Source of the DNA: Escherichia coli
Lineage (GTDB): Bacteria > Pseudomonadota > Gammaproteobacteria > Enterobacterales > Enterobacteriaceae
Assembly (NCBI RefSeq): GCF_003334335.1
Contig: NZ_QOWQ01000109.1
Direction: 5' to 3' (one strand)
Length of the DNA stretch: 1,340 nt
The position numbers were made by a program, and so were the translations under genes. A model generated the notes under the pieces. It did no database searches and was not told where the DNA came from. It worked only from the letters and a program-made list of their open reading frames with translations. Of the stretch, positions 1-1,340 are shown piece by piece (position 1 is the first letter of the stretch; the number at the start of each line of letters is the position of its first letter).

Positions 1-1
1 C

Positions 2-24
2 CATAAGCGCTAACTTAAGGGTTG
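2..24. repeat. Terminal inverted repeat, transposase-distal end (IRR), 23 bp
   Basis: Bases 2-24 are an exact reverse complement of 1318-1340. The match breaks immediately inward (gaacca on this side versus gtggta on the other). Confidence 0.9.
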
Positions 25-172
25 AACCATCTGAAGAATGCGACGCCTCGGTGCCTCGTTAAGACGATGCCTCGCGTTCTTCAATTGCGTTTTGTAGGCT
101 GTCAGGGATACTGTCCCACGAATGGCCACCTGTAAGCTCCAGATGACCATTTTTGTTATTCTCCACAACGAG

Positions 173-1285
173 TTAGTTCTTCTTTTCGGATCCGGCACTT
201 CTGGGGGGGAAATCCAGCGATGGCTGGATTATGTCGTCAATTAAAAATGCGGCGAGTAGATTAGCAAATATCCACGCTTTCGCGAGTTCAGGTTCCTTTG
301 CACGCAAAGCATCCAGGTGCAGCAAACTTTTGAGCCGCTTAAAAGCCAGTTCAATTTGCCATCGCAGACGGTAACAATCAGCCACTTGCTCTGCTGAATA
401 TTCATCTTCCGGTAATGATGTTAGCAATAGCACATGGCCCGCTGCTTCCAGCGTTTCCGCCTGAACTACTCGTCCTTTTCGACGATTCTCGCTGAGCAGT
501 CGGGTTTTACTGATTAATGCTTTTTCGGGAGGAAGTGATACGGCAATGAGACGTGCCGGAAAGGGAGCTCCGGCTTTTTTATTACCTGAATTGCCTATCA
601 TTACAGTGGTTTCACCGTTCTTACCGCAATCCAGCCCGCGCAGAAAACCCATCATGTCAAAGCGCATTCCTTCTGCAGTTAACCAGCGCAATCCTCGCCA
701 GTGAACCCGGACGATATAATCAGCTTCTCCAAAAGCAAGTGAGCGGATACATTCGGGACGCGAACCGAATCCCCGGTCAGCAATGCGTATCTCGTCTGCC
801 GTTTGCGCAAATCGGTCCAGCCGTTCAGCGTCTCTGCTGTCGGTTAGCTCAAAATCAGTGAACTGACAGGTATGAGGATCATATCCCATATGTAGTCGCC
901 ATTCAGCGCTGCCGCCCCCGGGCGCACTGATTGCTGTTCCATCGACAAGACGCAATCTCTTTCCGCTTGTACAACCCGTAACTGCGGCGCGTACAGCAAG
1001 TGTTTGTGCGGCAAGTATGCCAAACCAGTCGGCGGCATTCCGCAGCCGCTTCAGGAGAGCCACGTCAGATAATGTTGCAACGTCATGGAGCTGAGCCCAT
1101 GCAGTGACTTCACGTAATGACATCCCCCCGGGGCCGTAAGCCAGCCCCAGACGTAGCAGAGTTGCAGCATCACGAATTTCGCGGCGGCGGGTTAGAGCCC
1201 CGGCATTACGTGCCGAAGTATCCAGTTCTTCGGGCTTACCAATATGGGCCAGAATTGCTGACCAGTTATCGTGAGAGTAATTCAT
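173..1285 (-). CDS. insL: IS186 transposase InsL, IS4-family DDE transposase, 370 aa
   Basis: Continuous minus-strand ORF with TAA stop at 173-175. The track starts it at a GTG (1289-1291); I prefer the in-frame ATG at 1283-1285, which gives MNYSHDNW... and 370 aa. IS4-family motifs are present: VDGT (D codon 941-943), ADRGF (D codon 776-778), and YRLRWQIELAFKRLK (E codon 350-352). The ORF fills the space between the two terminal repeats. Confidence 0.93.
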   Translation of the reverse strand: MNYSHDNWSAILAHIGKPEELDTSARNAGALTRRREIRDAATLLRLGLAYGPGGMSLREVTAWAQLHDVATLSDVALLKRLRNAADWFGILAAQTLAVRAAVTGCTSGKRLRLVDGTAISAPGGGSAEWRLHMGYDPHTCQFTDFELTDSRDAERLDRFAQTADEIRIADRGFGSRPECIRSLAFGEADYIVRVHWRGLRWLTAEGMRFDMMGFLRGLDCGKNGETTVMIGNSGNKKAGAPFPARLIAVSLPPEKALISKTRLLSENRRKGRVVQAETLEAAGHVLLLTSLPEDEYSAEQVADCYRLRWQIELAFKRLKSLLHLDALRAKEPELAKAWIFANLLAAFLIDDIIQPSLDFPPRSAGSEKKN

Positions 1286-1296
1286 CGGCACGTTAA

Positions 1297-1327
1297 ATCA
1301 TATCAGGCGTAATACCACAACCCTTAA
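1297..1327 (-). promoter_or_regulatory. Candidate transposase promoter: extended -10 (TGaTATGAT) with weak -35 overlapping the terminal repeat
   Basis: On the minus strand, TATGAT (1302..1297) is immediately preceded by TGa (1305..1303), an extended -10 pattern about 11 bp upstream of the ATG. The only -35-like hexamers (TTAAGG at 1327..1322, AAGGGT at 1325..1320) are poor and lie inside the terminal repeat. No clear Shine-Dalgarno precedes the ATG. Prediction by eye only. Confidence 0.3.
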
Positions 1328-1340
1328 GTTAGCGCTTATG
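1318..1340. repeat. Terminal inverted repeat, transposase-proximal end (IRL), 23 bp
   Basis: Reverse complement of 1318-1340 is CATAAGCGCTAACTTAAGGGTTG, identical to 2-24. It lies 32 bp upstream of the transposase ATG on the minus strand. Confidence 0.9.

Follow-up and report, generated by a model that had tools for sequence, protein, structure and literature searches.

What is the element that occupies this stretch of Escherichia coli DNA from end to end, and what can be said of the site into which such an element inserts when almost no flanking sequence accompanies it? We analyzed the stretch (assembly GCF_003334335.1, contig NZ_QOWQ01000109.1; 1,340 nucleotides), hereafter called the window, and compared it with copies of the same element in other genomes. 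An earlier note on this sequence had identified it as the insertion sequence IS186 and had given, following the literature, a target consisting of a G-run followed by a C-run, target duplications of around 10 bp, and a hot spot at the lon promoter. The IS186 element, its G/C-run target, and the lon promoter hot spot are all already known; the target and the hot spot have been in print since 1985–2001. Our comparison indicates, with a probability of about 97%, that the window is one intact, presumably active IS186 copy (IS421/IS186B isoform; IS4 family with IS231-type ends), cut at its own termini plus one extra base at the 5' end.

Organization of the window

The following features were located in the window (coordinates, strand, description).

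1..1, no strand: the base C, not part of the inverted repeat; 38 of 38 copies have a C before CATAAG
2..1340, minus strand: complete IS186/IS421 insertion sequence, 1,339 bp, 100% identical to E. coli K-12 and BL21 copies
2..24, no strand: terminal inverted repeat downstream of the transposase gene (repeat pair I1)
10-150, minus strand: small ORF of 46 aa downstream of the transposase, called by some gene callers (e.g. locus L002, 3636-3776)
32..83, no strand: sub-terminal imperfect hairpin (repeat pair I2; 19-nt arms, 84% complementary)
173..1285, minus strand: transposase gene insL, an ORF of 370 aa plus stop, with a PGAP annotation at the same coordinates
553-858, plus strand: small ORF, treated here as a chance ORF
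1318..1340, no strand: terminal inverted repeat upstream of the transposase gene (repeat pair I1)

The arms at 2-24 and 1318-1340 form a 23-nt inverted repeat, CATAAGCGCTAACTTAAGGGTTG, with 23 of 23 positions complementary; such a match lying exactly at both ends of the window is far beyond chance. The left arm starts at base 2, and the right arm runs up to the final base of the window. The conventional orientation of IS186 is the reverse complement of the window. The terminal bases CATAAGCGCTAACTTAAG carry CAT at positions 1-3, AA at 11-12, and TAA at 15-17, and the ends of IS186 agree with the IS231-subgroup consensus CAT-------AA--TAA. The length from repeat to repeat was 1,339 bp, equal to positions 2-1340 of the window, in all 38 complete copies that had flanks, so that the window is left with a single nucleotide of left flank and none on the right. 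The C at position 1 also stands before the element in all 38 copies, as the final base of the duplicated target, and in the window it is most likely such a base and thus flank rather than element; no matching G is found past base 1340. The statement of the earlier note that the window begins and ends at the element termini was borne out by the repeats and by the uniform length of the 38 copies, and its estimate of at most 1 bp of flank proved exact, with the C as the only base outside the repeats. Its view that the window does not allow target site or context to be assessed also holds, as neither a second copy of the duplication nor a neighboring gene lies within it.

Only one long ORF was present between the arms; it ends with the stop codon at 173-175 and encodes 370 aa if translation begins at the ATG at 1285, or 372 aa with a GTG start. 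The 370-aa product matched the NCBIfam model NF033592 (NF033592.1; IS4 family transposase) with 133.3 bits, compared with a curated cut-off of 115, and Pfam PF01609 (DDE_Tnp_1) with E = 3.6e-26, the match covering positions 2-200 of the 200 in the model. In PGAP annotation the protein is called 'IS4-like element IS421 family transposase'. The motifs VDGT and ADRGF were found, and residues 305-319, YRLRWQIELAFKRLK, form a complete Y-(2)-R-(3)-E-(6)-K signature (Y305-R308-E312-K319). The predicted catalytic residues, assigned from motifs and not from a structure, are D115 in VDGT (941-943), D170 in ADRGF (776-778), and E312 (350-352). A PDB sequence search with the transposase returned no solved relative (e.g. 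Tn5 transposase) and one irrelevant match with E = 0.27. The ORFs at 10-150 (minus strand) and 553-858 (plus strand) belonged to no PHROG family and were therefore treated as chance ORFs. The former also had no Pfam match, overlaps the hairpin at 32-83, and is probably not a gene.

A non-coding stretch of 171 bp separates the transposase stop codon from the element end, and the hairpin at 32-83 lies within it. Its predicted fold has an energy of -26 kcal/mol (z = -2.7 on the plus strand and -3.0 on the minus strand), and a U-rich stretch follows it on the plus strand. The hairpin could block transcription coming in from the flank or stabilize the 3' end of the transposase mRNA. A terminator scan of the window did not call this hairpin; it reported two terminator-like sites, which does not exceed chance expectation. 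A sigma-70 promoter scan of the window called no promoter for the transposase, and an Rfam search of the window at E <= 1 gave no match.

Identity and abundance of the element

Positions 2-1340 of the window were 100% identical to 'insertion sequence:IS186A' (insL1) of E. coli MG1655 (NC_000913.3), in agreement with the name given in the earlier note, and we found nothing that contradicts the identification as IS186. The presumed activity of this copy is suggested solely by its intact ORF and intact repeats. The duplication length also fits the IS4 family: other copies showed 10 or 11 bp, compared with 4-6 bp in IS701, ISH3, and IS1634. The complete YREK signature is the IS4-family criterion of De Palmenaer et al. 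2008 (PMC2266710). According to Table 1 of the same paper, IS4-family ends begin with 5'-CA, and those of the IS231 subgroup start with 5'-CAT and are accompanied by duplications of 10-12 bp.

A megablast search of 5,426 complete E. coli genomes located IS186 in 2,221 of them, at 8,692 places in total, with a median of 3 and a maximum of 22 places per genome; 863 of the places were on plasmids. The best place was at least 99% identical to the window in 2,725 records, and at least 80% of the window was covered in 2,694 records. The element was also found on 1,004 plasmids of PLSDB, most of which come from Escherichia; Salmonella accounts for 91, Klebsiella for 72, and Shigella for 48. Among the loci that we fetched, 17 carried an element identical to window positions 2-1340, in at least 12 different contexts. 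These included pdeA/nupC and dnaJ/hokC in K-12, the lon promoter in BL21, and dmsC, hokE/entD, cas3/cysH, hyfA/B, cynR, and a group II intron in other E. coli chromosomes, as well as plasmids of E. coli, S. Typhi (pHCM1), and K. pneumoniae. Since identical copies exist at thousands of loci, the gene or promoter affected by the present copy cannot be deduced from the window sequence, and similarity searching was rejected as a way to its locus; once a window is cut at the ends of a repeat element, it tells nothing about position.

Two kinds of unusual record were observed in these searches. In several genomes (e.g. NZ_CP069712.1, 3382106-3384222), the match to IS186 was split in two over a span of 2,117 bp, an IS1A transposase being annotated between the pieces. 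IS1 is 768 bp long, and the extra 777 bp correspond to IS1 plus a 9-bp duplication, so that by its length the two-piece arrangement is an IS1 nested inside IS186. The sole record labeled as phage that contained IS186 was OR844776.1 ('Escherichia phage ECO111 5-P', UNVERIFIED_ORG, 5,129 bp; locus L028), which has low coverage. Its IS186 occupies a group II intron reverse-transcriptase site that is also occupied in an E. coli chromosome (L023). This record is probably bacterial DNA in a phage preparation.

Target site and duplication

We analyzed by script 38 other full IS186 copies together with their flanks, and the target consensus was derived from those flanks. CC preceded and GG followed the element in all 38 copies (CC|IS|GG), and every site that was read consisted of a G-run, 6-7 nt, and a C-run. 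The target of IS186 is thus GGGG-N6/7-CCCC, with an invariant inner GG/CC and a slightly looser outer pair (e.g. at cynR and on pHCM1). In a symmetrized matrix of the 10-bp sites, G occupied the four G positions in 27-30 of 30 half-sites. Exact direct repeats of 10 or 11 bp flanked 33 of the 38 copies, three further copies had repeats with one mismatch, and two had unrelated flanks; the target with its duplication of about 10 bp was accordingly seen in 36 of 38, the two exceptions being put down to recombination. Two of the three one-mismatch copies were at hokE, where the repeat sequence also differs among strains, which fits an old shared insertion.

Most sites had a duplication of 10 bp (GG-N6-CC); at two, the lon promoter and the group II intron reverse-transcriptase gene, it was 11 bp (GG-N7-CC). 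The first base of the duplicated interval is the third G of the G-run, and the last is the second C of the C-run. A symmetric target allows a site to be used in either orientation, and insertions of both orientations, with the same bases duplicated, were seen at lon, hokC, hokE, pdeA/nupC, and the group II intron. Copies of opposite orientation at one site (L004 vs L007/L011, L003 vs L010, L013 vs L014, L023 vs L028, and L001 vs L031/L035) point to independent insertions at hot spots. IS186 has been called a 'GC-specific' element (Chong 1985, as cited in PMC3903273). The presence of CC|IS|GG in 38 of 38 copies with duplications of 10-11 bp is a clean and reproducible confirmation of the target rule.

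The two copies with unrelated flanks were L022 (plasmid p720632_94, 1502-2840) and L032 (GCA_041077845.1, 1446-2784), and they look like products of recombination or deletion between IS186 copies. L022 adjoins a truncated HNH endonuclease gene. L032 joins a hokC-side flank to an entD-side flank, and the same genome also has a normal hokC/dnaJ junction (L033).

We also considered whether the favored sites may be longer hairpin-forming palindromes of the form (C/G)(C/G)GGGG-N6-CCCC(C/G)(C/G), for example intrinsic terminators or the 3' stem-loops of hok toxin mRNAs, a proposal that we regard as doubtful. At least six complementary base pairs per arm were present at 6 of 14 distinct sites, and C stood directly outside the G-run in 24 of 30 half-sites. 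Independent support for the proposal is thin because four of those six sites are hok paralogues. If true, it would be a hint that structure assists target capture and that the link with hok loci is systematic.

The lon promoter and hok loci

In MG1655 the sequence GGGGGAAACATCCCC occurs once near lon (L012, 1387-1401), and the lon start codon follows 88 bp downstream of it. By the sigma-32 consensus, this site lies between the -35 element (TTGAAT) and the -10 element (CCCCATAT) of the lon heat-shock promoter. The junction predicted for an insertion here, namely flank + GGAAACATCC + element end, was built in both orientations and was found in 45 genomes in one orientation and in 7 in the other. 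The 45 were mostly laboratory strains of the B/BL21 lineage, so that this orientation largely reflects one ancestral event; the 7 comprised K-12 derivatives and clinical isolates. E. coli BL21(DE3) and strain FAHZZU7007 carry IS186 at lon in opposite orientations. Removal of the element together with exactly 11 bp restored the MG1655 sequence over 300 bp in both strains, and removal of 9, 10, or 12 bp in the same comparison did not. Repeated spontaneous insertion of IS186 at one position of the lon promoter, in either orientation, has been shown experimentally (PMC3045373), and the lon hot spot has also been cited elsewhere (bioRxiv 10.1101/527788). The statements of the earlier note on insertion were sound on all three points: every site that was read had the G-run followed by the C-run; the duplication was mostly 10 bp, with 11 bp at two sites, the longer value being confirmed by the empty lon site; and the hot spot was recovered in 45 + 7 genomes in agreement with PMC3045373.

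Many chromosomal copies of IS186 were located approximately 22 bp downstream of a hok-family toxin gene, namely hokC by dnaJ, hokE by entD, and a hok gene by cas3/cysH (L003, L004, L006-L011, L015, L029, L032-L034, L036, and L038-L045). In L007, for example, the gene occupies 2271-2423 and the IS end lies at 2446. The insertions at these sites sit in a GC-rich 3' stem-loop, GCGGGG-N6-CCCCGC. A copy on a Klebsiella plasmid (L027) had a 10-bp duplication identical to that of the hokC site. Pedersen and Gerdes reportedly described in 1999 that hok loci of K-12 are inactivated by IS186. The cas3/cysH case has been discussed (PMC3903273).

Occurrence outside E. coli

A scan for the 23-nt ends in one genome per species (100,044 species) returned seven stretches, of which the one in E. 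albertii, at the cas3/hok/cysH site, was the sole credible full native copy; the scan thus widened the range of sites very little. The stretches assigned to Marinobacter (L016), a Collinsella MAG (L017/L018), Bradyrhizobium (L020), and Kocuria (L021) were on contigs of 210 bp to 5.3 kb and had IS186 termini with 100% identity. The Kocuria contig contained the K-12 dnaJ-side flank, and the Marinobacter contig contained the last 9 bases of the GGATTACTCC repeat known from the hokE site. These fragments probably represent E. coli contamination or mis-binning.

Another of the seven stretches belonged to a different insertion sequence of approximately 1,341 bp in a Chloroflexi MAG (JAAENC010000225.1; L019, 119-1459). 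It shares no internal DNA similarity with IS186, and its transposase of 366 aa is 31% identical to that of IS186. Its termini matched the IS186 repeat at 18 of 23 and 23 of 23 positions, a notable conservation of the ends beside the low protein identity. The flanks were of the type G-run|IS|C-run, with no visible duplication.

Alternative readings of the window

Since the element is always flanked by C and G, its exact boundary is formally ambiguous. It would be possible to draw the true element longer than 2-1340, taking in the flanking C/CC and G/GG, in which case the duplication would be 8 or 6 bp and not 10. The invariant CC and GG outside the repeats of all 38 copies agree with such a boundary, the occupied sites and the empty-site comparison fit it as well as ours, the MG1655 record gives IS186A as 1,345 bp with 3 bp more per side (L029, 1388-2732; NC_000913.3, 15387-16731), and the window itself includes one of these flanking bases. 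Nevertheless, we consider the longer element unlikely. The Chloroflexi relative, 31% identical in its transposase, has CATAAGCGCTAACTTAAG at both ends but G before and C after them; with its flanking bases differing in this way, conservation starts at CAT. Ends starting with 5'-CAT and duplications of 10-12 bp are those tabulated for the IS231 subgroup of the IS4 family (PMC2266710, Table 1), and a C without a matching G is a better fit to a flank base than to the end of a symmetric element. The empty site was rejected as a means of fixing the boundary, as all boundary models predict the same empty site. The boundaries of IS186 in databases are inconsistent, with 1,339 bp from repeat to repeat, 1,340 bp in the present window, and 1,345 bp in the K-12 annotation.

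Taking 2-1340 as the element, the coincidence of both window ends with element termini, which would almost never occur in a random window, suggests that an annotation or a reference entry determined where the window was cut. The same coincidence could be read as the mark of an artificial or chimeric sequence, such as an assembly artefact or a stitched sequence. Cutting along an annotation does not make a sequence artificial, though, and the full 1,339 bp were uninterrupted and 100% identical in 17 loci of independent complete genomes and plasmids, with at least 80% of the element covered in 2,694 records; an artefact is thus scarcely credible. The copy might also be one arm of a larger mobile unit, either a composite transposon or a cargo-carrying element. 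IS186 is indeed carried on many plasmid records, including the 863 plasmid places of E. coli, and the two copies with unrelated flanks indicate that IS186 copies take part in rearrangements. This reading is nonetheless very improbable, given that 33 of 38 copies were single elements with their own exact 10-11-bp duplication and that no pair of copies bracketing cargo was seen among the copies examined.

Proposed mechanism of insertion

By analogy with IS10 and IS50, the transposase would bind both 23-bp repeats and excise the element by a cut-and-paste reaction, which may pass through a hairpin intermediate modeled on those two elements and suggested by family membership. The ends would then be joined to the palindromic GGGG-N6/7-CCCC target at two staggered positions separated by 10 or 11 bp, with cuts presumably falling between the second and third G of the run on each strand. 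Repair of the joints would leave GG-N6/7-CC duplicated on both sides, as is seen in the flanks.

Comparison with known systems

The element in the window is like IS186A, IS186B, and IS186C of E. coli K-12 (isoform IS421) throughout, with the same 23-bp repeats and the same 370-aa transposase, and the copy in the lon promoter of BL21 is 100% identical to window positions 2-1340. The window and the K-12 IS186A record differ in bookkeeping only, the former having 1 extra base and the latter, drawn as 1,345 bp, extending 3 bp further at either end.

Compared with IS10 and IS50, the elements of Tn10 and Tn5, IS186 shares membership in the IS4 family, the DDE transposase with YREK, and a staggered cut of about 9-10 bp. 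IS10 and IS50, however, have ends beginning with 5'-CT, 9-bp duplications, and other target consensus sequences, and the solved structures of Tn5 transposase had no detectable sequence match to the IS186 transposase.

The placement of IS186 in the IS231 subgroup would follow from the end consensus and from its reported listing in ISfinder. The main text of PMC2266710 does not include IS186. Like the members of this subgroup of the IS4 family, IS186 has a DDE transposase, the complete YREK signature, the end consensus, and direct repeats within 10-12 bp. At 1.34 kb it is below the typical sizes of the subgroup, 1,450-5,400 bp (PMC2266710), and its palindromic G/C target is unusually strict.
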